Below the pieces are notes generated by a model that was given only the letters and a program-made list of their open reading frames with translations, was not told the origin of the DNA and did not search any database. The translations under genes and the position numbers were made by a program. A stretch of DNA of 18,842 bases from a virus: the UHGV virus genome UHGV-0125022; one strand, 5' to 3'. Below are positions 2,130 through 18,842 of this stretch, in pieces. The first letter of the stretch is position 1, and each line of letters starts with the position of its first letter.

Positions 2130-3062
2130 TTAAAGAACCGATTTAACAAGATGGTTTTTACGGTACAGACCTATGCGATCATTGTGAATCTCAGTAGTCT
2201 CCACTAAAAGAGAAACAATCTGTCCGACCTTGTGTTTTTTTTGTATTAAATCTAGCATTTCAATCGGATAGGAAGCCTTTAAATGTTCACCACCAACATC
2301 AAGCTCCAGCTTCCCATATTTGGATAGAACGACCAGTTCGCCTGTAACCGTTTCAGTAATGGGAGGTGATGAAATGGTTGATGTAAGTCTACTCACCAAG
2401 TACTTAATTTTATTGGAGTCAATAGTTACCACCTTGGTGCCATTACTAAATGGACCGGTCCAACTTGCATCAAATGTTAAGTTGTGTTTATCGCATTCCT
2501 CTACGATTCTCTTAAGGCTTACAGTGGAATTGTATCCAATTTCAGCGACGTGATTCATGAAGTTGTTGTCGTCATCGCTTAACAACAAATCGAATATGCC
2601 TTTTACAGCCTTGCTGGGTACTGTTTCTACTAATTCTGCTATTCCTGTAGAGAAGGTGACGCCCAATTTTGTAGACCCAGGGGATAAATCAGCCAGCCTG
2701 AGGTTTAAGGAGCTTTTCACGTCGTAGGGAACTTTTTTTGAGTCCTTGCCTGAGGCAATTTTGTGTGTTGCTCTTTGTATTAGCGCTGCAAGATTTGTTG
2801 AAATAGCCCCAAGCAGCTCTAAAGGAATAGAGCCAAAGTCAACCTCAGAGCCTTTCAGCCGCAGCTCAAAAAAATCGATAAGTGGGTGCCGACTATCTTG
2901 CTTTAATTTTTCGGCCTTCAAATCGCTCAGATGAGAATCCATGGAGCGATAAAGAAGCATGTCAGCAAAGGACCTGGTTTTGTTTTGCTTCATTGCATCG
3001 ACTTCTTTTTGAATGAAATCAATGCGTTTATCGCAATTTTTAAACATTGATTTATCATTCAT
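2130..3062 (-). CDS. Hypothetical 310-aa protein, distal gene of the two-gene module downstream of cI; candidate superinfection-exclusion or defence effector
   Basis: Long ORF with GAGGA Shine-Dalgarno 8 nt upstream. Start overlaps the upstream stop as ATGA. AT-rich. No motif I can assign. Confidence 0.7.
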   Translation of the reverse strand: MNDKSMFKNCDKRIDFIQKEVDAMKQNKTRSFADMLLYRSMDSHLSDLKAEKLKQDSRHPLIDFFELRLKGSEVDFGSIPLELLGAISTNLAALIQRATHKIASGKDSKKVPYDVKSSLNLRLADLSPGSTKLGVTFSTGIAELVETVPSKAVKGIFDLLLSDDDNNFMNHVAEIGYNSTVSLKRIVEECDKHNLTFDASWTGPFSNGTKVVTIDSNKIKYLVSRLTSTISSPPITETVTGELVVLSKYGKLELDVGGEHLKASYPIEMLDLIQKKHKVGQIVSLLVETTEIHNDRIGLYRKNHLVKSVL

Positions 3063-3538
3063 AAAAAAATCCTCACTAACCCTTTCGGGTTTTCACTGCG
3101 ATCAAAACCAAACCAACCGCGCCAGTAGCTACGCCAGTACTCATAATCATAGTTAGGGTCATCTAAATTCTTCATGAGTAGTAGGACATCAATTTTGTAG
3201 TTTTGTTTGATGTAGTTTCGGTCAAGCAAATTATCGACGCGGCCCCGAAGCATGACAGGTATTGAGTTTATATTGCTATAGTCACATACCAACAAAATAT
3301 CAATATCATCAGGCTCTGGTTTAGACGTGGTGTATGAACCATCAACCCATATTTCTGTAAAACAGCCATATTGAGCAGATAATTCTCGAATAGATTCGAG
3401 TAGCTGTATAAAATTACAGTATAGCATGCCTCGCCTGGATGATGAAGGAAAGCAATCGACACAATACGATTTTAATCCAGCTTCATCCATGTCATGGAAC
3501 CCTGGCTCAAACAGGGGTGGGTAATTAATTTTATCCAT
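3059..3538 (-). CDS. Minimal nucleotidyltransferase (Pol-beta superfamily, MNT-like) fold protein, 159 aa
   Basis: WVDGSYTTSKPEPDDIDILLV matches the hG[GS]-x9-13-Dh[DE]h nucleotidyltransferase signature. A further Asp-bearing strand KIDVLLL lies downstream. AAGG Shine-Dalgarno upstream. Confidence 0.65.
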   Translation of the reverse strand: MDKINYPPLFEPGFHDMDEAGLKSYCVDCFPSSSRRGMLYCNFIQLLESIRELSAQYGCFTEIWVDGSYTTSKPEPDDIDILLVCDYSNINSIPVMLRGRVDNLLDRNYIKQNYKIDVLLLMKNLDDPNYDYEYWRSYWRGWFGFDRSENPKGLVRIFL

Positions 3539-3737: not shown

Positions 3738-4442
3738 TCACGAACTTTTCAGCCACTCCCTTGCCTCGATGTCATCCAGATGGCGAGATTGCTTCAGAAT
3801 ACCAGCCACATACTCCACCTTTGCTACTTGATGATAAGGCAACGTTATTGGCCTGTGGTCTTGGTTGATGCTTGTAAATTGGTATTCTCCATCTCTGTCA
3901 TAGCCAAGAACCTTAATCATGTTGTGTCCTTCAACGGTTCTGACAAACACCTCATCACCCGGGAATACTTTGGTGTTAGGCTCAATGAGTACATATTCTC
4001 CTGATTTTATTCTAGGCCACATGCTGTCTCCTTTCACACGAAGGCCAAAGGCATCTGGATCATCGCTATAAATTTTGAGCCACCCATCGCGCTCTTCGGT
4101 CATCTCGATGGCACCATCAACACCAAGAATTGCCTCACCAACCACGCGCACTAACCCTTTTCTTACCTGACCGACAAAAGTTAAAGAATCTGAGCATGAT
4201 GCAATTGGTGTTACATCATGTACCAAATCAAGCCACCCATTAGGTAACCCAAGTGCGGCTTCAAATTTTCTTGCTAGTTTATCCCCTATGTTTCGAGTGC
4301 TTTTTTCACCGGAGACTTGCGTGAGTTGAGAAGGGCTAACCCCAAGCTTATCGGCAAAGCTTGCATTAGTGTTACCCGCGATTTTTTTATGCTCATCTAG
4401 CAAAAACGCCAGATTCGATTTGCGAATATCTTTGTTTTCCAT
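3738..4442 (-). CDS. cI: CI-type prophage repressor (N-terminal HTH plus C-terminal S24/LexA-like autopeptidase domain)
   Basis: 234-aa protein with an HTH-like N-terminus and C-terminal S24-type domain (GDSMWPRIKSGEYVLIE, then a downstream Lys). Divergent from cro across an operator-rich intergenic region. Confidence 0.9.
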   Translation of the reverse strand: MENKDIRKSNLAFLLDEHKKIAGNTNASFADKLGVSPSQLTQVSGEKSTRNIGDKLARKFEAALGLPNGWLDLVHDVTPIASCSDSLTFVGQVRKGLVRVVGEAILGVDGAIEMTEERDGWLKIYSDDPDAFGLRVKGDSMWPRIKSGEYVLIEPNTKVFPGDEVFVRTVEGHNMIKVLGYDRDGEYQFTSINQDHRPITLPYHQVAKVEYVAGILKQSRHLDDIEAREWLKSS

Positions 4443-5256: not shown

Positions 5257-6102
5257 ATGACAAATACAGCAAAAATACTCAACTTCGGCAGAGGTAACTT
5301 TGCCGAACAGGAGCTAAGAGTGGCTGATATCGATGATGGTTACACCAGATTCGCTAACGAGCTGCTGGAAGCTATCGCAAGTGCCGATTTAACCGCTCGC
5401 CAGTTGAAAGTTATGCTGGCCTACGTCCGGAAAACATATGGATTCAATAAGAAAACAGATCGAATAGCCGATGAGCAAATTGCTCAGTTAACAGGACTAT
5501 CAAGGCAGAATGTTAACAAGGCTAAAAAAGAACTGATTTCAATGAATTGCCTGTTTATGGATGGAAATCAAATCGGTGTAGACAGGGAGGTATCTGCGTG
5601 GCAATTCAGCAAGTGTCTCCAAGTTAGCAACTTTGTCTCGAAGTTAGAGACAAAAAATGTCTCCAAATTAGAGACACTCAATGTCTCGAAGTTAGAGACA
5701 CACAAAAGACATTCTTTAAAGACAAAAGAAAATATTAATAAACCCCCTATATCCCCCAAAAAAATTTCTCAGAAGTTCGACCCGCTAGAAACAGAGTTGC
5801 CTGATTGGTTATCGGCAGAAACATGGTTGTCGTGGGTTACCTATCGCAAGGAGATAGGTAAGTCGATCAAGTCTAAGCAAAGCGTCACTCAGGCTATCAA
5901 CGTTCTAAGCAGAAGTCTGGAGAAGGGATATACACCTGAAGAAATTATAAACCAGAGCATCGCCAGTGGTTGGCAGGGGATTTTTGAACCCAAGACTCCA
6001 AAGGGGAAATCTCAACCGAGGCCGCAGCAGCGAGCTATGCAGGAAAACTTTGCCGCCAAAGATTACGGGCAAACTGAAATGCCTTCATGGGCGCAGGAGT
6101 GA
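5257..6102 (+). CDS. O: Replication initiator O (lambda O-like N-terminal domain)
   Basis: N-terminus MTNTAKILNFGRGNFA...DDGY matches lambda O as recalled. Internal repeat peptide VSKLET x3 is encoded by the origin iterons. Confidence 0.9.
   Translation: MTNTAKILNFGRGNFAEQELRVADIDDGYTRFANELLEAIASADLTARQLKVMLAYVRKTYGFNKKTDRIADEQIAQLTGLSRQNVNKAKKELISMNCLFMDGNQIGVDREVSAWQFSKCLQVSNFVSKLETKNVSKLETLNVSKLETHKRHSLKTKENINKPPISPKKISQKFDPLETELPDWLSAETWLSWVTYRKEIGKSIKSKQSVTQAINVLSRSLEKGYTPEEIINQSIASGWQGIFEPKTPKGKSQPRPQQRAMQENFAAKDYGQTEMPSWAQE
5614..5745. repeat. Origin of replication inside O: four about 19-bp palindromic iterons (TGTCTCnAAnTTAGAGACA; one degenerate) at 24-bp period, then an AT-rich tract
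   Basis: Iterons at 5614-5632 (degenerate), 5634-5652, 5658-5676 and 5682-5700. AT-rich ACAAAAGACATTCTTTAAAGACAAAAGAAAATATTAATAAA follows. Same architecture as lambda ori. Confidence 0.8.
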
Positions 6103-7310: not shown

Positions 7311-7342
7311 AGGCCTGCTGGTAATCGCAGGCCTTTTTATTT
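7311..7342 (+). terminator. Rho-independent terminator (tR2-like) between the replication genes and the nin region
   Basis: Perfect 8-bp stem AGGCCTGC/GCAGGCCT with an 8-nt loop, followed by TTTTTATTT. Confidence 0.65.
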
Positions 7343-8396: not shown

Positions 8397-8758
8397 CAAT
8401 GGATTATTCACAGTTAAGTGATTTTGAAATTAACGTGGCGGTATTCGAAGCCATTCATAACGGATCACCGGATTACAAAGAAGGTGAGAATGGCGATATG
8501 GTGTTTGTCTCATTTGAGGGAGACATTGTAAACGGAGACGCAGTTGAAGTAGAAGTTGAGCGCGGATCCTTTAACCCATGCGCAAACCCAGCAGACTCAT
8601 GGCCGATTATTGAAAAATACAGGATTAGCATTATCAATCTCGATGAAGACGAGTGGGGTGCACGTGGTGTGGCCTACTGTAAATCTAAGCGAGCTATACA
8701 TAAAAATCCCCTTCGCGCCGCCATGATTGTCTTTCTCATGATGCAGAGAATCCAATAA
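8393..8758 (+). CDS. Hypothetical acidic protein (about 121 aa), nin region
   Basis: ORF track 8357..8758. ATG at 8393 overlaps the ninE stop (ATGA); alternative ATG at 8399. Confidence 0.55.
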
Positions 8759-8934
8759 TGCTTAGCCCATCCCAATCCCTTCAATACCAGAAAGAAAGCG
8801 TCGAGCGGGCTTTAACGTGCGCTAACTGCGGTCAGAAGCTGCATGTGCTGGAAGTTCACGTGTGTGAGCACTGCTGCGCAGAACTGATGAGCGATCCGAA
8901 TAGCTCAATGTACGAGGAAGAAGACGATGAATGA
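8758..8934 (+). CDS. ninF: NinF-like small Cys-rich protein (58 aa)
   Basis: Hand-translated: [58 protein letters not shown]. Too short for the ORF track. TAATG overlap with the upstream stop. Matches lambda NinF as recalled. Confidence 0.7.
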   Translation: MLSPSQSLQYQKESVERALTCANCGQKLHVLEVHVCEHCCAELMSDPNSSMYEEEDDE

Positions 8935-9649
8935 GTTAATAAATGGCAATGCCATCAAAATGACAAGCATTGAAATCGCTGAGTTGGTGGGTAAGCGTCA
9001 TGACAATGTGAAACGTACCATCGAAACGCTGGCTAAAAATGGTGTTATCCGGCTTCCTCAAATTGAGGTTTCCGAAAGAATCAATAACTTAGGGTTCAAT
9101 GTTCAGTACGAGCATTACGTCTTCGAAGGCGAACAAGGTAAGCGAGATAGTATTGTTGTTGTTGCCCAGTTGTCGCCAGAGTTCACCGCTCGCCTTGTTG
9201 ACCGCTGGCGAGAGCTTGAAGAAACTGCGGTTAATATCCCCAAAACGCTACCAGAAGCGTTGCGCCTTGCTGCTGATCTTGCTGAGCAGAAAATGCAACT
9301 GGAAAACCAGCTCGCAATTGCCGCACCTAAAGTTGAGTTTGCCGATCGCGTTGGCGAGGCCAGCGGAATTTTGATTGGAAACTTTGCAAAGGTTGTTGGA
9401 ATTGGTCCAAACAAACTGTTTGCGTGGATGCGCGATCACAAAATCCTTATTGCTTCAGGTTCCCGGCGCAATGTGCCAATGCAGGAATATATGGAGCGCG
9501 GCTATTTCACAGTGAAAGAAACAGCGGTCAACACAAATCACGGAATACAGATATCGTTCACCACAAAAATCACCGGGCGTGGTCAACAGTGGCTGACCAG
9601 AAAGCTGCTCGATAACGGAATGCTGAAAGTAACAGGGGAGGCTGCTTAA
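8927..9649 (+). CDS. Phage antirepressor (N-terminal Rha-type domain plus C-terminal KilA-C/AntB-type domain)
   Basis: N-terminal SIEIAELVGKRHDNVKRTIE is the Rha-family hallmark. 240 aa with the C-terminal region typical of KilA-C antirepressors. Confidence 0.75.
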   Translation: MNELINGNAIKMTSIEIAELVGKRHDNVKRTIETLAKNGVIRLPQIEVSERINNLGFNVQYEHYVFEGEQGKRDSIVVVAQLSPEFTARLVDRWRELEETAVNIPKTLPEALRLAADLAEQKMQLENQLAIAAPKVEFADRVGEASGILIGNFAKVVGIGPNKLFAWMRDHKILIASGSRRNVPMQEYMERGYFTVKETAVNTNHGIQISFTTKITGRGQQWLTRKLLDNGMLKVTGEAA

Positions 9650-9939
9650 TGGCCAATCTACGCAAAGAAGCACGCGGCAGAGAATGTCAGGTACGTATTT
9701 ACGGCGTATGCAATGGCAATCCTGAAACTACAGTTCTGGCACATTACCGGATGGCTGGAATTTGCGGAACGGGAATGAAACCTGACGACCTGATCGGCGC
9801 ATGGGCTTGTAGCGACTGCCACGCGGAGATCGACCGACGCACCCATAACCTCGACAACAAAGACGCCAGACTTTACCACCTCGAAGGCGTGATCAGGACG
9901 CAGGCGATACTGCTGAAGGAGGGGAAGATTAAACCATGA
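9649..9939 (+). CDS. YbcO-like protein (DUF1364; Cys/His-rich putative nuclease)
   Basis: RGRECQVRIYGVCNGNPETTVLAH...CSDCHAEIDRRTH resembles E. coli DLP12 YbcO as recalled. TAATG coupling with the upstream gene. Confidence 0.75.
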   Translation: MANLRKEARGRECQVRIYGVCNGNPETTVLAHYRMAGICGTGMKPDDLIGAWACSDCHAEIDRRTHNLDNKDARLYHLEGVIRTQAILLKEGKIKP

Positions 9940-10298
9940 ACGAATATCAGTTTGTGCTTCCATACCCGCCGTCGCTGAATACCTACTGGAGAAGACGGGG
10001 AAGCCAATACTACATCAGCGATAAAGGCCAGAAATACCGAAAAGACGTTCAGAAAATCATCCGCCAACTTAAGTTAGACATTTTCACTAAATCACGACTC
10101 CGCATCAAAGTCATCGCAGACGCTCCAGACTCCCGCCGCCGCGACCTCGATAACATCCTGAAAGGTTTACTCGACTCACTTATCCATGCCGGATTTGCGG
10201 AAGACGACGAGCAATTCGATGACATTCGCGTAATTCGTGGTGTGAAAGTACCAGGTGGAAGGCTTGGAATAAAAATCACCGAACTGGAGAACGCATGA
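9936..10298 (+). CDS. rusA: RusA Holliday-junction resolvase
   Basis: 120 aa with RusA hallmarks (LPYPPSLN, DSRRRDLDN, GGRLGIKITELE). ATGA overlap upstream. Confidence 0.9.
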   Translation: MNEYQFVLPYPPSLNTYWRRRGSQYYISDKGQKYRKDVQKIIRQLKLDIFTKSRLRIKVIADAPDSRRRDLDNILKGLLDSLIHAGFAEDDEQFDDIRVIRGVKVPGGRLGIKITELENA

Positions 10299-10483
10299 AC
10301 GCCACAATTCAAACGATACCAGAGCTTCTTATCCAGACACGAGGCAATCAGACCGAAGTGGCGAGGATGCTTTCCTGCGCAAGAGGAACAGTGCTCAAGT
10401 ACAACCGAGACAGAAAAGGCGAGCGTCACGTAATAGTTAACGGCGTCCTGATGGTCAAACAGGGCAAGAGGGGTAGACCATGA
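10295..10483 (+). CDS. ninH: NinH-like protein
   Basis: TIPELLIQTRGNQTEVARMLSCARGTVLKY resembles lambda NinH as recalled. Located just before Q. Confidence 0.75.
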   Translation: MNATIQTIPELLIQTRGNQTEVARMLSCARGTVLKYNRDRKGERHVIVNGVLMVKQGKRGRP

Positions 10484-11103
10484 GACTCGAAAGCGTAGCT
10501 AAATTTCATTCGCCAAAAAGCCCGATGATGAGCGACTCACCACGGGCTACGGCTTCTGACTCTCTTTCCGGTACTGATGTGATGGCTGCTATGGGGATGG
10601 CGCAATCACAAGCCGGATTTGGAATGGCTGCGTTCTGTGGTAAGCACGAACTCAGCCAGAATGACAAACAAAAAGCCATCAACTATCTGATGCAATTTGC
10701 ACACAAGGTATCGGGGAAATACCGTGGCGTTGCAAAGCTTGAAGGAAATACTAAGGCAAAGGTACTGCAAGTGCTCGCAACATTCGCTTATGCGGATTAT
10801 TGCCGTAGTGCCGCGACGCCGGGAGCAAGGTGCAGAGATTGCCACGGTACAGGCCGTGCGGTTGATATATCAAAAACAGAGCTGTGGGGGAGAGTTGTTG
10901 AGAAAGAATGCGGAAGATGCAAAGGTGTCGGCTATTCAAGAATGCCAGCAAGCGCCGCATATCGCGCTGTGACGATGCTAATACCCAACCTTACCCAACC
11001 AACCTGGTCACGCACTGTTAAGCCGCTGTATGACGCTCTGGTGGTGCAATGCCACAAGGAAGAGTCAATCGCAGACAACATTTTGAATGCGGTCACACGT
11101 TAG
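10480..11103 (+). CDS. Q: Late-gene antiterminator Q (lambda Q type)
   Basis: 207 aa. Sequence matches lambda Q over essentially the full length as I recall it, including the zinc-binding CRDCHGTGR...CGRCKG. A lambda-like pR' follows. Confidence 0.9.
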   Translation: MRLESVAKFHSPKSPMMSDSPRATASDSLSGTDVMAAMGMAQSQAGFGMAAFCGKHELSQNDKQKAINYLMQFAHKVSGKYRGVAKLEGNTKAKVLQVLATFAYADYCRSAATPGARCRDCHGTGRAVDISKTELWGRVVEKECGRCKGVGYSRMPASAAYRAVTMLIPNLTQPTWSRTVKPLYDALVVQCHKEESIADNILNAVTR

Positions 11104-11145
11104 CAGCATGATTGCCACGGATGGCAACATATTAACGGCATGATA

Positions 11146-11183
11146 TTGACTTTTTGAATAAAGTTGGGTAAATTTGACCCAAC
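11146..11183 (+). promoter_or_regulatory. Late promoter pR' with qut region (-35 TTGACT 11146-11151, -10 TAAATT 11169-11174, 17-bp spacer)
   Basis: TTGACTTTTTGAATAAAGTTGGGTAAATTTGACCCAACGATGGGTTAAT is near-identical to the lambda pR'/qut sequence as recalled. Confidence 0.75.
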
Positions 11184-11206
11184 GATGGGTTAATGCCTTC
11201 GTTTAA

Positions 11207-11241
11207 AGCCCCGCGGATAACACCGTGGGGCTTTTGCGTTT
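11207..11241 (+). terminator. tR'-like terminator about 25-60 nt downstream of the pR' start
   Basis: AGCCCCGCGG / CCGUGGGGCU 10-bp stem with one G-U pair and an AUAACA loop, followed by UUUGCGUUUC. Confidence 0.6.
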
Positions 11242-11253
11242 CTGGAGGTAACG

Positions 11254-11272
11254 GCGAGGCGCTACCCTCGCC
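11254..11272. terminator. Second hairpin (GGCGAGG / CCTCGCC, 5-nt loop) between tR' and the 3' end of the convergent minus-strand gene; possible bidirectional terminator
   Basis: 7-bp perfect stem read from the sequence. Weak T-tracts on both sides. Confidence 0.4.
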
Positions 11273-11278
11273 TTAACA

Positions 11279-11695
11279 TTAAGGGAGGGTTTTCATTACG
11301 CTATCAATCTCCCTTCCTTCAAATCTTGAAGTCCAGCCGCAGGAGCCGCAATGGTAAGGAAAGTCATCGAACCCGCTACCGACCTGTTTAAGACAGTTGG
11401 GGCAATAAACCGCGCTGATATACCCACCCGCGGGATTTTTTCTAAAGGCCGCACCCATGTGCTCGACAAACTCATCCTTTGCCCGATAAGCCGCTATTTC
11501 CTTCTCAAGTTCTACGTTCTTGGCTTTCGCCTCGGCAAGTTCTGCTATGGTGGCAGCATGGGCTTTTTGAAGTACGTCGATCTGCTCTCCAATGAAAGCG
11601 ATGCGCTCGCGCAGGACCTCGTTACTTTGCACAGCAGAAAGCGCGCCGATCCCGTTTTTAAGGGACGCGATAAGTAATCCTACATCCATGGTCAT
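11279..11695 (-). CDS. Hypothetical cargo protein: N-terminal coiled-coil-like region plus C-terminal CxxC...CxxC zinc ribbon, convergent to late transcription
   Basis: 138-aa ORF. C-terminal CPNC-x14-CGSC. N-terminal heptad-like, Ala/Glu/Lys-rich segment. AGGGA Shine-Dalgarno. Start may be M1 (11695) or M3 (11689). Confidence 0.6.
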   Translation of the reverse strand: MTMDVGLLIASLKNGIGALSAVQSNEVLRERIAFIGEQIDVLQKAHAATIAELAEAKAKNVELEKEIAAYRAKDEFVEHMGAAFRKNPAGGYISAVYCPNCLKQVGSGFDDFPYHCGSCGWTSRFEGREIDSVMKTLP

Positions 11696-11944
11696 TCCCT
11701 AATTGTCTGTGGAATGACCAATTTAGCAATTTCCTTTATCTGTGGAAAGCAGGGAAACCACGCGCCGGGCGTGGATAAATATCCCGGTATTGAATCGACT
11801 GTTGGCTGCCGCTTGGCGGCCTTTTTCATTTCAGGCTCACGGGAATCATCCGCTACGTGCTTTGTTGATAAATCCATCCCGTGAAGCCTGACCCTTTTCA
11901 AACACACACACACAGCGCCATCCGAAAAATCGGAGGTGAGGCCT

Positions 11945-12268
11945 ATGAAAATGCCATACAAACAAGATTTCATCGCTGCGCTACTTGCCGCCAAGGAGCA
12001 GGGTATTGGTGCAATGCTGGCTTTTATCATGGCGTATCTGCGTGGTCGCTATAACGGCGGCGCGGTAACAAAAACGCTAATTGATGCGCTGATGTGCGCG
12101 ATGATTGCCTGGTTCGTTCGTGACCTTCTGGACTTTATCGGCCTGAGCAGCAACCTCGCCTACATAGCCAGCGTCTTTATTGGATACATCGGCACCGATT
12201 CGATCGGCAATCTTATTAAAAAACTTGCAGCAAAAAAGGCGGGAGTTGACGATGCAAACCAGTCCTGA
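11945..12268 (+). CDS. S: Class I holin S (lambda S type) with dual-start motif
   Basis: [27 protein letters not shown] resembles lambda S105/S107 as recalled. GGAGGTGA Shine-Dalgarno. ORF track begins at an in-frame GTG at 11936. Confidence 0.9.
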
Positions 12269-12701
12269 CGGAATTGCTCTGATAAAAAAATTTGAAGGTT
12301 GTCGGCTGACTGCTTACCCCGACCCCGGAACGGGAGATGCGCCGTGGACCATCGGCTATGGCTGGACCCATCCGGTTGACGGAAAGCCAGTAAAGCGCGG
12401 TATGACTATCGACCAGCAAACCGCTGACAGGCTTCTGAAAACAGGGCTTGTTGGTTATGAGAATGACGTGCTGAAAGTTGTCAGGGTGAAGCTGACACAA
12501 GGCCAGTTCGACGCACTGGTGTCGTTCGCTTACAACGTTGGGTCGCGTGCTCTTTCCACATCTACACTGCTGAAAAAGCTGAATGCTGGCGATATAAAAG
12601 GCGCGGCAGATGAATTTCTGCGCTGGAATAAATCAGGCGGAAAGGTGATGCCGGGGCTCACGAATCGCCGCAAGGCAGAGCGAGCTCTGTTCCTGTCATG
12701 A
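12252..12701 (+). CDS. R: Endolysin, GH24 phage lysozyme (P22 gp19 type; not the lambda R transglycosylase)
   Basis: C-terminal [11 protein letters not shown] and the overall sequence resemble P22 lysozyme as recalled. No SAR-like N-terminal hydrophobic segment. GGAG Shine-Dalgarno before the ATG at 12252. Confidence 0.85.
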
Positions 12702-13165
12702 TTAGCGCACTGGTTAAGCGTTACTGGCTGCAGTTGCTGGTGCTGGCGTTAATCGGCGCACTGGCTTTCTTCGTGAACCACTACCGCGACAACGCCATCA
12801 CTTACAGAGACCAGCGCGATAAGGCCACTGAGAAACTCCTCCTGGCGACCGCCACCATTAAAGACATGCAGACCCGCCAGCGTGATGTCGCTGCACTGGA
12901 TGCCAAATACACCGGAGAACTGGCTGATGCGAAAGAAACCATTGAGCGTCTGCATAGCGATGTCATTGCTGGCCGTAAGCGGCTGCAAGTCGCCGCCACC
13001 TGTGCAAAGTCAACGACCGGAGCCAGCAGCATGGGCGATGGAGAAAGCCCAAGACTTACAGCAGATGCTGAACTCAATTATTACCGTCTACGAAGTGGAA
13101 TCGACAAGATAACCGCGCAGGTTAACTACCTGCAGGAATACATCAGGACGCAATGCCTGAAATAA
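12698..13165 (+). CDS. Rz: Spanin inner-membrane subunit Rz (i-spanin)
   Basis: N-terminal TM segment then [17 protein letters not shown] and [13 protein letters not shown], close to lambda Rz as recalled. ATGA overlap with the lysozyme stop. Confidence 0.85.
12927..13112 (+). CDS. Rz1: Spanin outer-membrane lipoprotein Rz1 (o-spanin), embedded in the +1 frame of Rz
   Basis: Hand-translated 61-aa protein [25 protein letters not shown]... with lipobox LAVSGC and a Pro-rich mature part, wholly inside Rz. Confidence 0.7.
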
Positions 13166-13196
13166 TTTTTTTTGCAAATCACAAAGTCAATTTAAT

Positions 13197-13222
13197 GAGC
13201 CTCGCGATGCGGGGTTTTTTTT
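13197..13222 (+). terminator. Rho-independent terminator after the lysis cassette
   Basis: CCUCGC/GCGGGG stem (one G-U pair, short loop) followed by eight T residues. Confidence 0.5.
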
Positions 13223-13371
13223 ACATCTGAATTTCACAGCGCATCTCACGCGCATATTACATCACCCGAGCCTTTCAGAAAGTTGAGCCTGAGAACTGCC
13301 GTATATGGTGGCGACCATCTCGGGGCGGCTTTTCTGTGAGACAGGCTCACTTTCTAAAAGGTAAAGACGCT

Positions 13372-13890
13372 ATGAATAATCCGTCAGTTATTCCGGCCTT
13401 CGACTTCCGCGAAATGGTCACGACCCTCGACAACAAGATAATCACCACATCACTCAAGGTGGCGGATTACTTTGGCAAGCGACACAAAGACGTTTTGCGT
13501 GCCATACGTAACCTGAAATGCTCCGATGACTTCACCCAGCGCAATTTTGCGCCCATTGATTTCATTGATAAAAATGGCGATGTTCAGCCTATGTATAACA
13601 TCACCCGCGACGGATGCATGATGCTAGTGATGGGATTCACTGGCAAAACAGCTGCCGCAGTGAAGGAGTGTTACATCAATGCCTTCAACTGGATGGCCGA
13701 GCAGCTAAACCGGCGCATGGCGATGGGTGAAGAATTGCAGCATCGCTACGCCATCAAAGAAACGCGCTCAAAGCTGAAAGGCACGATCGGAAGCCGTTTG
13801 ATGAACGAGCGGAAGAAAGAGAAGCGCGTCCTGGAGCTCGAACATGAGCACATCATGCAGGTAACGCAGCCGGAATTACTTATTGGCTGA
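13372..13890 (+). CDS. rha: Rha-family phage regulatory protein
   Basis: N-terminal TSLKVADYFGKRHKDVLRAIRNL is the Rha-domain hallmark. ORF track 13336..13890; ATG at 13372 preferred. Confidence 0.7.
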   Translation: MNNPSVIPAFDFREMVTTLDNKIITTSLKVADYFGKRHKDVLRAIRNLKCSDDFTQRNFAPIDFIDKNGDVQPMYNITRDGCMMLVMGFTGKTAAAVKECYINAFNWMAEQLNRRMAMGEELQHRYAIKETRSKLKGTIGSRLMNERKKEKRVLELEHEHIMQVTQPELLIG

Positions 13891-13950
13891 ACGCGGCATT
13901 ACAGAAGCCCTTCATTGAGGGGCTTCGATAATGGAGCACTGGAATTATTC

Positions 13951-14571
13951 ATGAACAGACCACACCCACCAGCGCATTTTACGATGCCACCTGACCCGAA
14001 GCCGTACATCAGCATTATGCCCGCTAATGACGTTGGCGAGTGGCTGAATCAGCACATCCTGAGCGATGAGGGTGACCTCTACAACCATGACCACCAGCAT
14101 TTGCTTGAAGCGGATCTGTGCTTTCTCTGGGCATCGAACGCTTTCGAGAAGAAAGGGCGTTCCGTGCTGGGGCAGGCGGAAGAAGTGGCAATGCGGGCCG
14201 GAGGCTGGCAGAAAGCGCGGATGGAGCAGCAGATGTATGAATGGTTCGGCAGGGTGCCGCAGTTCATCATCACGCTGGCCGCCGATTACTGCTCGCAATG
14301 TTCCGATCTGGAATTCTGCGCGCTGATAGAGCACGAGCTTTATCACATCTGCCAAGCGACAGATGAATTTGGTGCGCCGAAGTTCACGCAGGAAGGGCAG
14401 CCAAAGCTGAAGCTGCGCGGCCATGACGTGGAAGAGTTTGTGGGCGTGGTTCGCCGTTACGGTGCAAGCCGGGACGTGCAGGAAATGATTGATGCGGCGA
14501 ATCAGCCAGCGGAGGTTGCTCATCTCGATATTGCCAGAGCGTGCGGGACGTGCATGTTAAAGCTGGCGTGA
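13951..14571 (+). CDS. Hypothetical protein with HExxH motif (putative zinc metallopeptidase-like)
   Basis: IEHELYHICQ contains HExxH. ORF track starts at a TTG at 13915; first ATG is 13951 with a weak Shine-Dalgarno. Confidence 0.55.
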   Translation: MNRPHPPAHFTMPPDPKPYISIMPANDVGEWLNQHILSDEGDLYNHDHQHLLEADLCFLWASNAFEKKGRSVLGQAEEVAMRAGGWQKARMEQQMYEWFGRVPQFIITLAADYCSQCSDLEFCALIEHELYHICQATDEFGAPKFTQEGQPKLKLRGHDVEEFVGVVRRYGASRDVQEMIDAANQPAEVAHLDIARACGTCMLKLA

Positions 14572-14602
14572 ATTCTAGACTGGTATGGACGGATGGTGAA
14601 AT

Positions 14603-15076
14603 ATGGCTGCTTTAAAACCGGAAGTAAAAGCCTTCATCATTCAATCGCTTGCGTGCTTTGATACTCCTTCTCAAGTTGTCGAATCCGTCAAGAAAGAGTT
14701 TGGGTTAACTATTTCTCGCCAGCAAGCCGAAGCACACGACCCAACCAAGGCTAGTAGCAAAGGTTTAGCCAAAAAGTGGATCGAGATGTTCCACGCGACG
14801 CGCAAACGGTTCCTGACCGAAACCAGCGACATTCCGATCGCGAACAAATCCTATCGCCTCCGCGTGCTTGACCGTATGGCAACCAAAACCGAGGGGATGA
14901 AAAACTTCTCCCTGACGGCGCAGCTCATTGAGCAGGCCGCGAAAGAGGTTGGCGATGCATACACCAATAAGCTGAAGGTTGAGAGCACTGGCAAGGATGG
15001 CGGCCCGATCAAGACCGAGACGACCAACCTCACCGCAGATCAGGCCGCAGAGATTTACCGCAAGATGATGGGGTGA
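14603..15076 (+). CDS. Putative terminase small subunit (DUF2280-like)
   Basis: 157-aa protein immediately upstream of, and overlapping, the large terminase. Basic N-terminal region. Assignment is mainly positional. Confidence 0.6.
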
Positions 15077-16701
15077 TCATGCCTCTTCCGTTTGAATTCG
15101 ATTTCAGAAACCCTGATTACCAGATGGTTTTTGAATGGCGGATGGAGCGCTTACAGCGCATTCGCCAGAACCCTGAAATGCTGCCAGCGCTAAAGCAGTT
15201 TTACCGCACCAACCCGGCACAGTTCATCATCGACTGGGGGATGACTACTGACCCGCGTAACATCGATTATGGCCTGCCGGTCACCATCCCTTTTCTGCTG
15301 TTCCCGAAACAGGAAGAGTGGATTCACTGGATCATGGAGCGGCGCGAACGACTGGAGAACGGCATCACCGAAAAGAGCCGCGAAATGGGGCTCAGCTGGA
15401 CGGCGATCGGGCTGGCCTGTTCGCTCTGCCTCTTCAACAAAGAAATGGTCATCGGCTTCGGCTCCCGTAAAGAGGAATACGTCGACAGCACCGGAGACCC
15501 GAAGGCGCTGTTCTGGAAGGCGCGCAAGTTCGTGGAAACGCTGCCCATCGAGTTTCGTGGTTCGTGGGACGAGAAGAAGCATGCGCCGTATATGCGCGTT
15601 GAGTTTCCCGATACTGGCGCGGTTATCAAAGGCGAGGCTGGCGACAATATCGGACGTGGTGACCGTACCACGCTCTACCTGGTGGATGAAGCTGCATTCC
15701 TCCAGCGTCCTCTGTTGATTGATGCGGCGCTGTCGCAAACCACCCGTTGCCGTATTGACCTGAGCTCGGTTAATGGCATGGCGAACCCGTTCGCGCAGAA
15801 GCGCCACGGCGGAAAAATACCAGTATTCACGTTCCACTGGCGGGATGATCCTCGCAAGGATGAAGAGTGGTATCGCAGGGAGTGCGAGAAAATCGACAAT
15901 CCGGTGGTGGTGGCGCAGGAACTTGACCTGAACTACAGCGCATCTGCGGAAGGCGTCCTGATCCCGTCCGACTGGGTACAGGCTGCCGTCGACGCGCATA
16001 TCAAACTTGGTATTCAGCCAACGGGCAAGCGACTGGGCGCGATGGACGTCGCCGACGAAGGCCGGGACAAAAACGCCTTTTCGACCCGTCACGGCTTCCT
16101 TCTGGAGAACGTGCGTGAATGGTCCGGCGTTGGCAGCGACATTTACCAGTCCGTTGAGAAGGTCTTCGGCTTTTGCGAACAGGACAACCTCGAAGAATTT
16201 CGCTTCGACGAGGACGGCCTGGGCGCTGGCGTTCGCGGCGATGCACGCGCCATCAACGAACTGCGTAACGCTGCGCGCCGACCGTCAATACTCGCCACAC
16301 CGTTTCGCGGTAGCGGCGCGGTGTTTGATCCGGACGACGAAGCGGTGCGCGGCGACAACGGACAGGCCGCCCGCCTGAATAAGGACTTCTTCGCTAACGC
16401 CAAGGCCCAGAGCTGGTGGCATTTACGCAAGCTTTTCCAGAACACCTATCGCGCCGTGGTTGAGGGCATGGCCTACAACCCGGACGAAATCATCTCAATC
16501 AGCAGCGCCATGGCGAGCAAAGACAAACTCATCATCGAGCTGTCGCAGCCGACCTACTCCATTAATGGCGTGGGGAAAATCGTTGTTGATAAACAGCCTG
16601 ATGGCACCAAGTCGCCGAACCTCGCCGACTCGGTGATGATCAGCTACGCGCCAATGAATTCAGCCCTGAACATCTGGGAGCTGCTAGGGAGACAGGCCTG
16701 A
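15073..16701 (+). CDS. Terminase large subunit
   Basis: 542 aa. ATPase-like segment then LYLVDEAAF (Walker B-like). Size and position before the portal. Start is GTG 15073 or ATG 15079. Confidence 0.85.
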
Positions 16702-18170
16702 TGGCACGAAACAAGCAATCCTCTCAGCGAACGGCACAGCCCACCGCTGACGGCTACGAGAACTTCGTCGCCCGCGTTGGGATGCAGACGCCTAACCAGC
16801 ATTCAGCATCGACCTACCGGGCGAACTCCACCAGCCGCAACCGCATGCTGGTGGAATGGTCATATCGCGGTTCGTGGGTTATCGGTGAAGCGGTCGACGC
16901 TATCCCGGACGATATGACCCGAAAGGGCATTCGCATCACTTCGGAGATTGACGCCAAAGACCGTGGCACCCTCGAAGCGCAACTGGATGAGTTGCAGATC
17001 TGGGATGCGCTGAACGACGTGCTGAAATGGTCGCGCCTCTACGGCGGCGCGGTCGGCTTCATCATGATCGAGGGGCAAGCACCAATGACCCCGCTGCGAC
17101 TCGAAACCATTGGCGAGGGCAAGTTTAAGGGCATTCTCCCGCTCGACCGCTGGATGATTAACCCGGTGCTGACACGCCGCATTAAAGAGATGGGGCCGGA
17201 CCTCGGCAAGCCTGAGTTTTACGACGTGGTGACCACCGCAACGGGCATTCCGGCCTGGCGCATCCATCACAGCCGCCTGATCCGCTTTGATGGCGTCACG
17301 CTGCCATTCCAGCAGAAGATGACCGAAAACGAATGGGGAATGTCGGTTGTAGAGCGTATCTGGGATCGGCTTACTGCGTTCGATAGCGCTACTGTCGGCG
17401 CGGCGCAGCTGGTCTATAAAGCGCATCTGCGTACCTATAGCGTGGAGAAGTTGCGCGAGCTTATCGCGCTTGGAGGCCCGGCGTTCGAAGCGTTGCTGAA
17501 GAACATCGACCTGATCCGCCAGTTCCAGAGCAATGAAGGTATGACGCTCATGGACTCGCGGGATAAGTTCGAAACCCACCAGTACAGCTTTAGTGGTCTG
17601 GATGACATTCTTTCGCAGTTTGCTGAGCAGATCAGCGGTGCCGTTGGTATCCCGCTGGTACGCCTGTTCGGTCAATCCCCGAAAGGCTTCTCTACTGGTG
17701 ATGCAGACCTCGCCAACTATTACGACCGGGTGAGCTCATTGCAGGAGCGCCGCTTACGGCTGCCGATGCGCCGGATACTGGACATTATGCACCGCTCGGA
17801 ACTCGGAAAGCCGCTGCCGGAAGATTTCACGTTTGAGTTTAACCCGCTATGGCAAATGTCAGACGTTGACCGATCAACGGTGGCCGTAAACACCACCAAC
17901 GCGATCAGTACCGCGCTGGGCGACGGATTGATGACGCGTAAGGCGGCGATGACCGACCTGCGCGAAAACTCTGACGTCACCGGCATCGGGGCATCCATTA
18001 CCGACGAGGATATCGAGAATGCCGAAGACGAAGCGCCGCCAGGCATCGGCGAACTTGGCGACAAACCGCCAGAGTCGCCAGGCGGAGATCCGATATCGAA
18101 CGAGCCTACGGCAGATAGCGCGGGCGGTCGGGGATATCGTAAATGGGCGCTACGATGGTTCAAACGATAG
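16701..18170 (+). CDS. Portal protein
   Basis: 489-aa protein directly after terL (ATGA overlap), with an acidic C-terminal tail. Position and size typical of portal. Confidence 0.8.
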   Translation: MARNKQSSQRTAQPTADGYENFVARVGMQTPNQHSASTYRANSTSRNRMLVEWSYRGSWVIGEAVDAIPDDMTRKGIRITSEIDAKDRGTLEAQLDELQIWDALNDVLKWSRLYGGAVGFIMIEGQAPMTPLRLETIGEGKFKGILPLDRWMINPVLTRRIKEMGPDLGKPEFYDVVTTATGIPAWRIHHSRLIRFDGVTLPFQQKMTENEWGMSVVERIWDRLTAFDSATVGAAQLVYKAHLRTYSVEKLRELIALGGPAFEALLKNIDLIRQFQSNEGMTLMDSRDKFETHQYSFSGLDDILSQFAEQISGAVGIPLVRLFGQSPKGFSTGDADLANYYDRVSSLQERRLRLPMRRILDIMHRSELGKPLPEDFTFEFNPLWQMSDVDRSTVAVNTTNAISTALGDGLMTRKAAMTDLRENSDVTGIGASITDEDIENAEDEAPPGIGELGDKPPESPGGDPISNEPTADSAGGRGYRKWALRWFKR

Positions 18171-18183
18171 CGTCACCGAAATA

Positions 18184-18792
18184 ATGGATGCGCTGGAGCG
18201 CTACAGCGAAATCATCACCCCCTGGGCGACGAAGGTTGCTGAGAACTTCACCGCAGACATAGCGCGCCAGAATGAAAAGCAGTGGCGTCAGCACAGCCGG
18301 AACATCAGCGCAGAGCTGCGCAACATGGTTGACCGCGCCCCGGTAGGCCAGGTGATGAAATCCATCGTCGCCGAGCAAATTAAGTACATCAAATCTCTGC
18401 CTCTTGAGGCCGCCGATCGGGTGTATGACATTCAGAACAAGGCCATCGAGGCTGTAGTAACTGGTGGCCGCGCTGAGCCATTCGCGAAAGAGATAGCTGC
18501 TTCCGGTGACGTGTCACGCTCACGAGCGAACCTTATCGCCCGGACTGAGCTTGGGCGCGCAACCGGCGCGCTGGATCAGGCGCGTGCGCTGTCAATCGGC
18601 TCGAATGGTTATATCTGGCGTACAGCCGAAGATGGCGACGTCCGGCATTCTCATCGAGAGATGGAAGGGAAGTTTGTCGAATGGGGCCGACCTCCAACGC
18701 TTGACGGCATGACCGGTCACGCTGGCGAGCTCCCGAACTGCCGCTGTTACAAAGAAATCGTCTTCCCCAACCCTCATTCTTATCTCGCCTGA
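18184..18792 (+). CDS. Head morphogenesis protein (Mu gpF / SPP1 gp7 family)
   Basis: C-terminal motifs IARTELGRA ... HSHREMEG ... LPNCRC are typical of the Mu F family. First ATG after the portal stop is 18184; the ORF track extends in frame back to 18019. Confidence 0.7.
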   Translation: MDALERYSEIITPWATKVAENFTADIARQNEKQWRQHSRNISAELRNMVDRAPVGQVMKSIVAEQIKYIKSLPLEAADRVYDIQNKAIEAVVTGGRAEPFAKEIAASGDVSRSRANLIARTELGRATGALDQARALSIGSNGYIWRTAEDGDVRHSHREMEGKFVEWGRPPTLDGMTGHAGELPNCRCYKEIVFPNPHSYLA

Positions 18793-18806
18793 ATCGCAGG
18801 TAAACC

Positions 18807-18842
18807 ATGAAATATTTTTTCAATACCCGGCTGGGGGAAACC
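18807..18842 (+). CDS. Start of a further head-region ORF (MKYFFNTRLGET...), truncated by the window end
   Basis: ATG at 18807 with an AGG-rich stretch upstream. Only 12 codons visible. Confidence 0.3.
   Translation, partial: MKYFFNTRLGET

Follow-up and report, generated by a model that had tools for sequence, protein, structure and literature searches.

The nin-region KilAC-domain gene of a lambdoid prophage is roi and carries a candidate operator within its own coding sequence

Results

Position of roi in the prophage

The DNA analysed here (the window, a whole stretch of 18,842 nt) is a mosaic lambdoid prophage. It carries N, a two-gene cassette, cI, cro, cII, O, a gene for a DnaC-like loader, and the nin genes together with Q; its other genes are two leftward ORFs, S, R, Rz, rha, a metallopeptidase gene, terminase, portal and a MuF-like gene. 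Neither Rfam families nor tRNAs were found in the window.

An ORF of the nin region with an ATG start (8927-9649, plus strand) encodes a protein of 240 aa, and by sequence comparison the gene is roi, an already known nin-region regulator of lambda-like phages. The protein shows 100% amino acid identity with Roi of HK620, where the identical protein is annotated as 'DNA-binding protein Roi', and 88% identity over its full length (240 aa) with Roi of HK022, the phage in which roi was first described. As in HK022 and HK620, roi lies between P and Q, flanked by ninF and by ybcO/hkbD-rusA; in the window it is followed by a YbcO-family gene, a RusA gene, a 62-aa ninH-like ORF and then Q, and the order in the two phages is tR2, ninB, ninE, ninF, roi, hkbD, rus, ninH, Q. 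The Roi proteins of HK022, HK97 and HK620 are orthologues of the one in the window, with the same two domains and the same ninF-roi-ybcO/hkbD-rusA-ninH-Q order, and that of HK620 has zero differences from it at the protein level.

The gene is tightly packed between its neighbours. The ninF stop codon (8932-8934) and the roi ATG (8927) overlap by 8 nt in ATGAATGA, a GAGG is placed 9 nt 5' of this ATG, and at the other end the TAA of roi and the ATG of the ybcO-like gene at 9649 share 1 nt (TAATG). The original prediction, made from the letters alone, had placed the gene between ninF and a ybcO-like gene with coupling on both sides, and the two overlaps agree with it; what it had missed is that this gene is roi, which has been named and experimentally studied.

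Upstream of the nin genes there is a tR2-like intrinsic terminator (Table 1), which is the strongest terminator-like site in our scan (8 pairs, 6 of them GC) and whose position is equivalent to that of tR2 in the HK620 annotation. The site scan gave no promoter-like sites for roi above background; LexA boxes near roi or rha occurred at chance level only, with none within several kb of roi. Because roi lies behind the tR2-like terminator, its expression should need antitermination by N and should be delayed-early, in line with the timing proposed at first; and because it belongs to the pR operon, inactivation of CI and the action of N should both precede any synthesis of Roi. Transcription of roi would therefore start from pR in an N-dependent, delayed-early operon, and its translation is coupled to that of ninF and of the ybcO-like gene.

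Table 1. Coordinates of the features of the window
Feature	Position	Strand	Remarks
CI repressor (S24 peptidase type)	3738..4442	-	100% identical to H-19B CI; unlinked to the Roi allele
tR2-like intrinsic terminator, 5' of the nin genes	7311..7334	+	AGGCCTGC...GCAGGCCT followed by a T run
ninF	8758..8934	+	Pfam NinF PF05810, E = 2e-12; stop overlaps roi start by 8 nt
roi, two-domain regulator, 240 aa	8927..9649	+	100% HK620 Roi, 88% HK022 Roi
Rha-type winged-helix domain, Roi residues 12-99	8960..9223	+	PF09669, above cut-off
Variable mosaic patch of roi, residues ~22-65	8990..9121	+	Nearly invariant flanks; HK022 alignment, eight alleles
Intragenic dyad, candidate Roi operator	9050..9074		CGG-ctt-CCTCAA-a-TTGAGG-ttt-CCG; centre nt 136 of roi
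IHF consensus core	9079..9091	+	AATCAATAACTTA; 10 nt 3' of the dyad core
ANT/KilAC domain, Roi residues 126-228	9302..9610	+	PF03374; near-invariant across alleles (low entropy)
YbcO/DUF1364 putative nuclease (= HK620 hkbD)	9649..9939	+	Pfam YbcO PF07102, E = 1e-43
rusA, Holliday-junction resolvase	9936..10298	+	Pfam RusA, E = 5e-16
Late antiterminator Q	10480..11103	+	Pfam Antiterm, E = 1e-57; final gene of the operon containing roi
rha, 172-aa Rha-family regulator	13372..13890	+	Between lysis genes and terminase, late operon

Domains and variability of the Roi protein

Profile searches recognised two domains in Roi: Phage_pRha (PF09669) at residues 12-99 (E = 6e-9, 36.7 bits) and ANT/KilAC (PF03374) at residues 126-228 (E = 1e-32, 113.2 bits). 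Both matches exceed the Pfam gathering thresholds (29.9 and 25.3 bits, respectively), so that the reading of the 240-aa product as a Rha-N plus KilA-C protein is confirmed. Roi also matches PHROG 63, 'anti-repressor Ant', with E = 9e-99, and the C-terminal part of P1 KilA (X15638) is 67% identical to residues 104-233 of Roi. Searches of solved structures with the Roi sequence and profile gave no match, even at E = 10, and PADLOC gave none for Roi or Rha.

Window and HK022 roi are near-identical outside a patch at residues ~22-65. Per-position entropy calculated from 115 homologues is highest at residues 41-60, and by the same measure the KilAC half of the protein is near-invariant. An AlphaFold2 model was built on an alignment of 24 sequences; the KilAC half has a pLDDT below 50 and the N-terminal domain alone is usable, with residues 11-80 (pLDDT 67-83) folded as strand, helix, helix and beta hairpin. 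In this model the variable patch corresponds to the second helix and the beta hairpin (wing) of the N-terminal domain.

Distribution of roi and its linkage to neighbouring genes

The ninF-roi-ybcO stretch matches 390 phage records, and among the matching phages 'roi' is annotated in HK022, HK97, HK620, CUS-3, mEpX1/2, HK629 and others; Gally and many Stx phages carry the gene as well. DNA similar to this stretch is present in about a third of the complete E. coli genomes (1919 of 5426), in which PGAP calls the product 'phage antirepressor KilAC domain-containing protein'. A relative of Roi is encoded on 557 viral contigs, and the best 80 of the 557 are 98-100% identical. At the 80 loci with this Roi allele the flanking genes recur: ybcO is found in 72 and rusA in 68 (each with at least 90% identity), and a ninF homologue is present in all 80, with at least 90% identity in 46. 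Homologues with the Rha-KilAC architecture are also encoded by ICP1 (gp112, 'putative DNA-binding protein Roi') and by Jerseyvirus FSL SP-101; ICP1 and this Jerseyvirus are virulent phages. In some Stx2a prophages roi is interrupted by IS629 (PMC4587872), which indicates that roi is dispensable for lysogeny.

The immunity region does not follow this pattern of linkage. Fifty-eight loci combine a Roi 98-100% identical to that of the window with an upstream sequence of 5.3 kb or more; of these 58, only three encode a CI at least 90% identical to that of the window, and seven encode any detectable relative of this CI. HK620 combines the identical Roi with an unrelated cI of the 434/L type, and the CI of the window is found again in Stx2a_WGPS9, there with a Roi allele of 81% identity. 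The Roi allele is thus linked to ninF, ybcO and rusA rather than to the immunity type.

A dyad at a fixed position within roi

Inside the variable patch roi contains an extended dyad, whose core CCTCAAATTGAGG (CCTCAA-A-TTGAGG, 9056-9068) is perfect, and close to it a core for IHF (Table 1); the IHF consensus WATCAANNNNTTR has a single exact match in the 18.8-kb window, and this match is inside the patch. HK022 and HK620 roi, like that of the window, have both an intragenic dyad and an IHF core. In HK022, where residues ~22-65 belong to a different mosaic allele, the arms differ (CTGCA-T-TGCAG as against CCTCAA-A-TTGAGG); the palindrome CTGCATTGCAG occupies nt 131-141 of the gene and the IHF core AATCAATGATTTA nt 153-165. 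The centre, nt 136, is the same in HK022 and the window, and it is also the centre of the palindromes of Stx2a_WGPS6 (CCTGCA-T-TGCAGG), of Cronobacter ENT47670 (TCCTCAA-A-TTGAGGA), whose identity is 52%, and of Stx1_699, which has a perfect palindrome of 12+1+12 (CAATTTCCACAG-A-CTGTGGAAATTG).

An anchored pattern search yielded 42 distinct DNA alleles of the patch. All alleles with the peptide 'KRHDNVKRTIETL' have CCTCAA-N-TTGAGG; two variants of this type were seen, one altered in the central base and one in the adjacent base, the latter with perfect arms of 5 instead of 6. All alleles of the type 'NVK(I/V)SI(E/D)RL...PALQ' have C(C)TGCA-T-TGCAG(G), and two other allele classes have imperfect dyads (8/10 and 7/10) with the centre unchanged. 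Within nt 116-160 this centre is the best or joint best in 7 of 7 allele classes, and over the whole gene it ranks at or beside the top among ~700 centres.

The two arms change together. In a covariation test on 13 distinct 31-mers, symmetric cells of the dyad are complementary in 78% of cases, compared with 62% in shuffles (none of 500 reached 78%) and 20-47% with slid partners. In this test 9 of the 12 dyad pairs vary on both sides, and the covariation score of the dyad is 0.41, while no control exceeds 0.14. Random synonymous recodings of the gene match the observed dyad score with P between 0.0002 and 0.07 in all ten alleles considered (10/10); the dyad exceeds what coding constraint produces. 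The position is conserved in distant homologues too, since the highest-scoring dyad within the 5' 300 nt of the gene falls at homologous codons in Pseudomonas USP_18 (9/10), Vibrio D339 (8/10) and ICP1 gp112 (9/10), and the Pseudomonas and Vibrio phage homologues that keep it are 34-44% identical. The dyad spans 13-25 bp and is centred on codon 46.

Taken singly, the dyad of one gene is unexceptional: the window scores 7/10, which is not significant, as shuffles reach 7-8 of 10, and the case for the dyad is for this reason a comparative one. Elsewhere in the window no copies of the palindrome were found beyond chance, and within rha there is no dyad comparable to that of roi. The dyad was also considered as an intrinsic terminator, and this was rejected because no T run follows it.

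In six other enterobacterial homologues the IHF core recurs at nt 153-159 with 0 or 1 mismatch, where ~0.1 matches are expected in each; by allele, it follows the dyad in classes A to E as well as in Salmonella SP-101. ENT47670 lacks the core, as do the Pseudomonas and Vibrio homologues. The core coincides with a conserved peptide, I-N-N-L-G (I-N-x-L-G). As stand-alone evidence it was rejected, because this peptide underlies it and some alleles lack it, and it counts only jointly with the dyad and its positional conservation.

Which protein could recognise such a site is suggested by its company. An identical dyad is found beside unrelated CI and Cro proteins, which argues that the binder is not the immunity repressor. 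A binder whose specificity varies with the dyad would most simply be Roi itself, and the palindrome within roi probably serves as the binding site of its own product. In Stx1_699 the second helix is almost identical to that of the window and the palindrome is different, so that a given helix does not always go with the same dyad.

Discussion

A probable self-binding regulator assisted by IHF

In the HK022 study of 1996 Roi was reportedly characterised as a helix-turn-helix DNA-binding protein whose site is intragenic and has an IHF site close by. The binding of Roi is said to be stabilised by IHF, and single-residue roi mutants with altered binding reportedly grow on IHF-deficient hosts. The dyad at 9050-9074 and the exact IHF core at 9079-9091 appear to fit this description of the intragenic site of HK022. 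According to the title of the paper (Clerget & Boccard 1996, J Bacteriol 178:4077; cited in PMC3430580 and PMC4587872), Roi blocks growth in IHF mutants.

In our view Roi is likely to be a delayed-early regulator that binds its own gene with the help of IHF and exerts its effect on the host through the KilAC domain. The variable Rha winged helix would bind, as a dimer, the 25-bp dyad in roi (9050-9074), and IHF on the adjacent core (9079-9091) would stabilise the complex between Roi and the dyad in enterobacteria. The outcome would be an IHF-assisted self-control of roi, possibly combined with a roadblock or brake on transcription towards Q. The near-invariant KilAC domain would be the effector on a host target, for which RecA/SOS or cell division are candidates by analogy. 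Unchecked Roi, for example in an IHF-deficient host, would harm lytic growth, and such a mechanism would account for the damage done by uncontrolled Roi when IHF is missing. The comparisons made here establish the identity of the gene, its synteny, its domains, its coupling, the co-varying dyad and the IHF core. We infer that the dyad corresponds to the Roi site of HK022, that its logic would be autoregulation or possibly a roadblock, and that the KilAC domain would have a host target, the candidates for which are extrapolated from Gram-positive phages.

Alternative readings of the dyad and of the protein

Compensatory changes in the two arms would be expected equally for an RNA stem, and instead of a DNA site for a protein the conserved dyad could be an mRNA hairpin with a role in pausing, in translation or in the stability of the RNA. 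The window sequence folds with -9.8 kcal/mol (z = -3.3) and that of Stx1_699 with -13.8 (z = -5.1), and the dyads of Pseudomonas, Vibrio and ICP1 are G+C-rich. However, the dyad of HK022 folds with -2.9 kcal/mol, no better than shuffles, and the symmetry is strongest innermost, around one central base, where pairing in a hairpin is impossible; moreover G-T pairs are rare, the T run is missing and there is no Rfam match. A hairpin is possible but less likely than a protein-binding site, and we hold it to be improbable. A further reading overlaps our preferred one and differs in emphasis: by analogy with the AriS proteins of Listeria phages, the main job of Roi would be the inhibition of RecA/SOS or of another host function (e.g. 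cell division) by KilAC, which would damp the SOS-dependent induction of co-resident prophages, with the Rha domain tuning the phage's own genes. In AriS-type proteins (Azulay et al. 2022, PMC9043618) KilAC inhibits the SOS response, probably through RecA, an activity that maps to this domain in three Listeria proteins, and control of the phage's own genes falls to an exchangeable N-terminal domain (AntA/B, Bro-N or pRha); pRha joined to KilAC is listed among these architectures, and Roi has a pRha N-terminus joined to a conserved ANT/KilAC C-terminus. In E. coli the C-terminal KilAC domain of Gp07 of Staphylococcus phage phi11 inhibits growth as well as cell division and causes filamentation (PMC5944126), and the KilAC half of Roi is near-invariant and 67% identical to P1 KilA. 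On the other hand, the functional data on KilAC were all obtained with proteins of Firmicute phages, whose KilAC domains are distant from that of Roi, and AriS at its native expression gave no measurable inhibition of SOS (PMC9043618). AriS itself differs from Roi by its AntA/B N-terminus, its Firmicute phage and the fact that no intragenic operator has been reported for it; Gp07 differs by a Bro-N N-terminus, a Gram-positive phage and a different gene neighbourhood. On balance, that this is what Roi mainly does seems to us rather unlikely.

The name antirepressor leads to a further reading, in which Roi would be a true antirepressor: by binding CI-type repressors it would induce its own prophage or heteroimmune prophages resident in the same cell. 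The KilAC domain is common to Roi and to Ant1/Ant2 of P1, the family is widely annotated 'anti-repressor', and in Stx phages roi adjoins a gene annotated ant. The ANT/KilAC domain is indeed named after P1 KilA and P1/P7 Ant1/Ant2, but the N-terminal domains differ (Rha in Roi, KilA-N in KilA, AntA/B in Ant), as does the setting (the lambdoid nin region as against the P1 lytic replicon or immI), and P1 Ant, unlike Roi, is under its own immunity circuit. Functional antirepressors of the type of P22 Ant, P1 Ant, Gifsy GfoA/GfhA and N15 AntC have separate control, that is, an own promoter held off by LexA or by a dedicated secondary repressor, with expression while CI is still active; roi has neither LexA box nor promoter of its own, and from the pR operon behind tR2 Roi would be produced only once CI is off. 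Association with a particular repressor type, also tested as a trait of such antirepressors, was not found for the Roi allele, which meets the CI of the window in 3 of 58 loci. Roi homologues exist in ICP1 and a Jerseyvirus, both virulent. Variation in the protein is concentrated in a winged-helix DNA-binding domain, which co-varies with the DNA dyad and not with CI, and in the HK022 work Roi was described as a DNA-binding protein. We consider a true antirepressor very improbable. The original prediction had seen in the gene an antirepressor that could mediate cross-induction of, or interference with, heteroimmune prophages: its architecture, position, coupling and delayed-early timing are upheld, and cross-induction is not supported, given that neither immunity linkage nor separate control was found. 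These tests remove the positive case for an action of Roi on heteroimmune repressors, and the term is an inherited annotation that comes from the KilAC domain shared with P1 Ant. Interference with co-resident prophages is possible; since the best-documented activity of KilAC, that of Listeria AriS, is to suppress SOS, it would dampen and not trigger the induction of a neighbouring prophage. The AriS authors themselves call the exact function of 'antirepressor' domains unclear (PMC9043618).

Significance

It was already known that roi and rha are very common accessory regulators of lambdoid phages, and their co-occurrence has been described; what is new here is modest, namely a comparative case for a self-encoded, co-varying operator in roi. 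The palindrome gives a regulator described in 1996 a concrete candidate site of action, and its covariation suggests how phage mosaicism could move a DNA-binding specificity along with the sequence that it targets. The label 'antirepressor' is probably misleading for Roi-type proteins and should not be used to predict cross-induction of prophages, including the Stx prophages that carry roi.

Extending our preferred reading of Roi as a self-binding regulator, we tentatively propose, as a possibility that we rate somewhat below an even chance, that Roi-family genes are recombination cassettes, each with its own operator in the DNA coding for the specificity-determining wing and helix. The arms would shift with the protein patch, the two being inherited and exchanged together, and this arrangement would be conserved from the lambdoid phages of E. 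coli to Pseudomonas phages and ICP1. Bound Roi, with IHF in enterobacteria, would form a self-limiting roadblock towards Q, and KilAC would modulate RecA/SOS and in this way affect co-resident prophages.

The second Rha-family gene

The window contains a second gene with a Rha domain, rha, which had also been noticed at the outset and is borne out by profile searches: Phage_pRha is matched with E = 8e-31 and 107 bits (cut-off 29.9) and PHROG 518 with E = 6e-77. A GTG at 13336 would give a longer ORF, but the start originally given, the ATG at 13372, is the better one, as it is here that the PHROG 518 profile begins. Within the late operon the gene comes behind those for lysis, a position which is presumably that of rha in P22. 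We classify it as a distantly related second Rha-family regulator of the P22/phi80 type. Like it, the Rha of phi80 and P22 (orf201) belongs to the Rha family, and the phi80 and P22 proteins block growth in IHF-defective hosts (PMC4936722). Rha and Roi share the Rha domain and a reported block of growth in IHF-deficient hosts. Their Rha domains show 46% identity over 28 residues, and a recent duplication as the source of the two was rejected on this ground.

Of 63 loci that carry this Roi allele, 13 have a Rha homologue next after the genes for lysis. The prophage Gally of LF82, 97% identical to the window in the ninF-roi-ybcO stretch, has been described with roi and rha among five regulators (PMC9928086); the pairing of the two genes is already described there and is not special. 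The rha product of the window has neither KilAC nor a comparable internal dyad; it is ~40% identical to annotated Rha proteins of Salmonella phages and 100% identical to the product of a gene of Citrobacter phage Omnitron. A terminator-like hairpin lies between Rz and rha, at 13197-13217.

Mosaic organization of the prophage

Mosaicism is strong across the whole window. Positions 11902-18842, comprising the lysis genes, the second Rha-domain gene (rha), the terminase and the portal, share 97% identity with Citrobacter phage Omnitron; mEpX1/HK97-like phages give piecewise matches to the early region, and the CI protein is identical to that of the Stx1 phage H-19B. The slot following Rz is occupied by hkbK (described as "similar to P1 KilA"; 11130-11627) in HK620, whereas in the window the same slot carries rha (13372-13890); thus the post-lysis position holds interchangeable members of one regulator superfamily.

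Features located in the window
Feature	Position	Strand	Location
Two overlapping genes	2130-3538	-	Between N and cI (lambda rexAB position)
Perfect LexA-box-like palindrome CTGTATAAAATTACAG	3404-3419		Within the DUF6932 gene (5' portion)
Three tandem NVSKLET copies in the O protein	5650-5720		Within O (5257-6102)
Pair of leftward ORFs (138 and 112 aa)	11279-12030	-	Between Q and the holin gene
Terminator-like hairpin	11804-11821		Region of the leftward ORFs

Accessory genes and sequence elements

The two genes lying between N and cI look like a candidate anti-phage defence pair borne by the prophage. One product, of 159 aa, belongs to DUF6932 (Pfam, E 2e-24; PADLOC PDC-M63A, E 2e-41); the other, of 310 aa, matches PADLOC PDC-M63B (E 7e-45) and nothing in Pfam. 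The pair was found in none of the 80 related Roi loci (the best 80 of 557 viral contigs encoding a relative), which were covered with 6-kb flanks; its distance from roi, however, about 5.4-6.8 kb on the upstream side, puts it at or beyond the edge of such flanks. The LexA-box-like palindrome is the sole exact CTGT-N8-ACAG in the window, a single match being not far from chance expectation.

The NVSKLET repeats are the origin iterons within O seen in translation, as in other lambdoid phages. The leftward ORFs occupy the position of stx in Stx phages; neither matched anything in Pfam or PADLOC, and the second overlaps the start of the annotated holin ORF.

Variation in roi and its homologues

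Two viral contigs, carrying roi alleles of sequence classes B and C, have a frameshifted roi, with premature stops as a result. The frameshifts fall at about nt 143-160 of the gene, in the A run after TTTTCG (GAAAAAAAAATC in Stx2a_WGPS6), and reflect either a slippage-prone sequence or assembly error.

In the homologue of the Salmonella phage FSL SP-101 (32% identical), the best dyad (TGAGTTTTTCGAAGAAATCA, in the region of gene nt 144-171) is shifted some 15 nt downstream relative to the usual centre (nt 136 of roi, the middle of the conserved dyad that is the candidate Roi operator). It abuts AATCAATAACTTA, an exact copy of the IHF core found just downstream of the roi dyad. A related palindrome, TTTTCGAAAA, is present at nt 143-152 of the class B and C alleles of E. 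coli.
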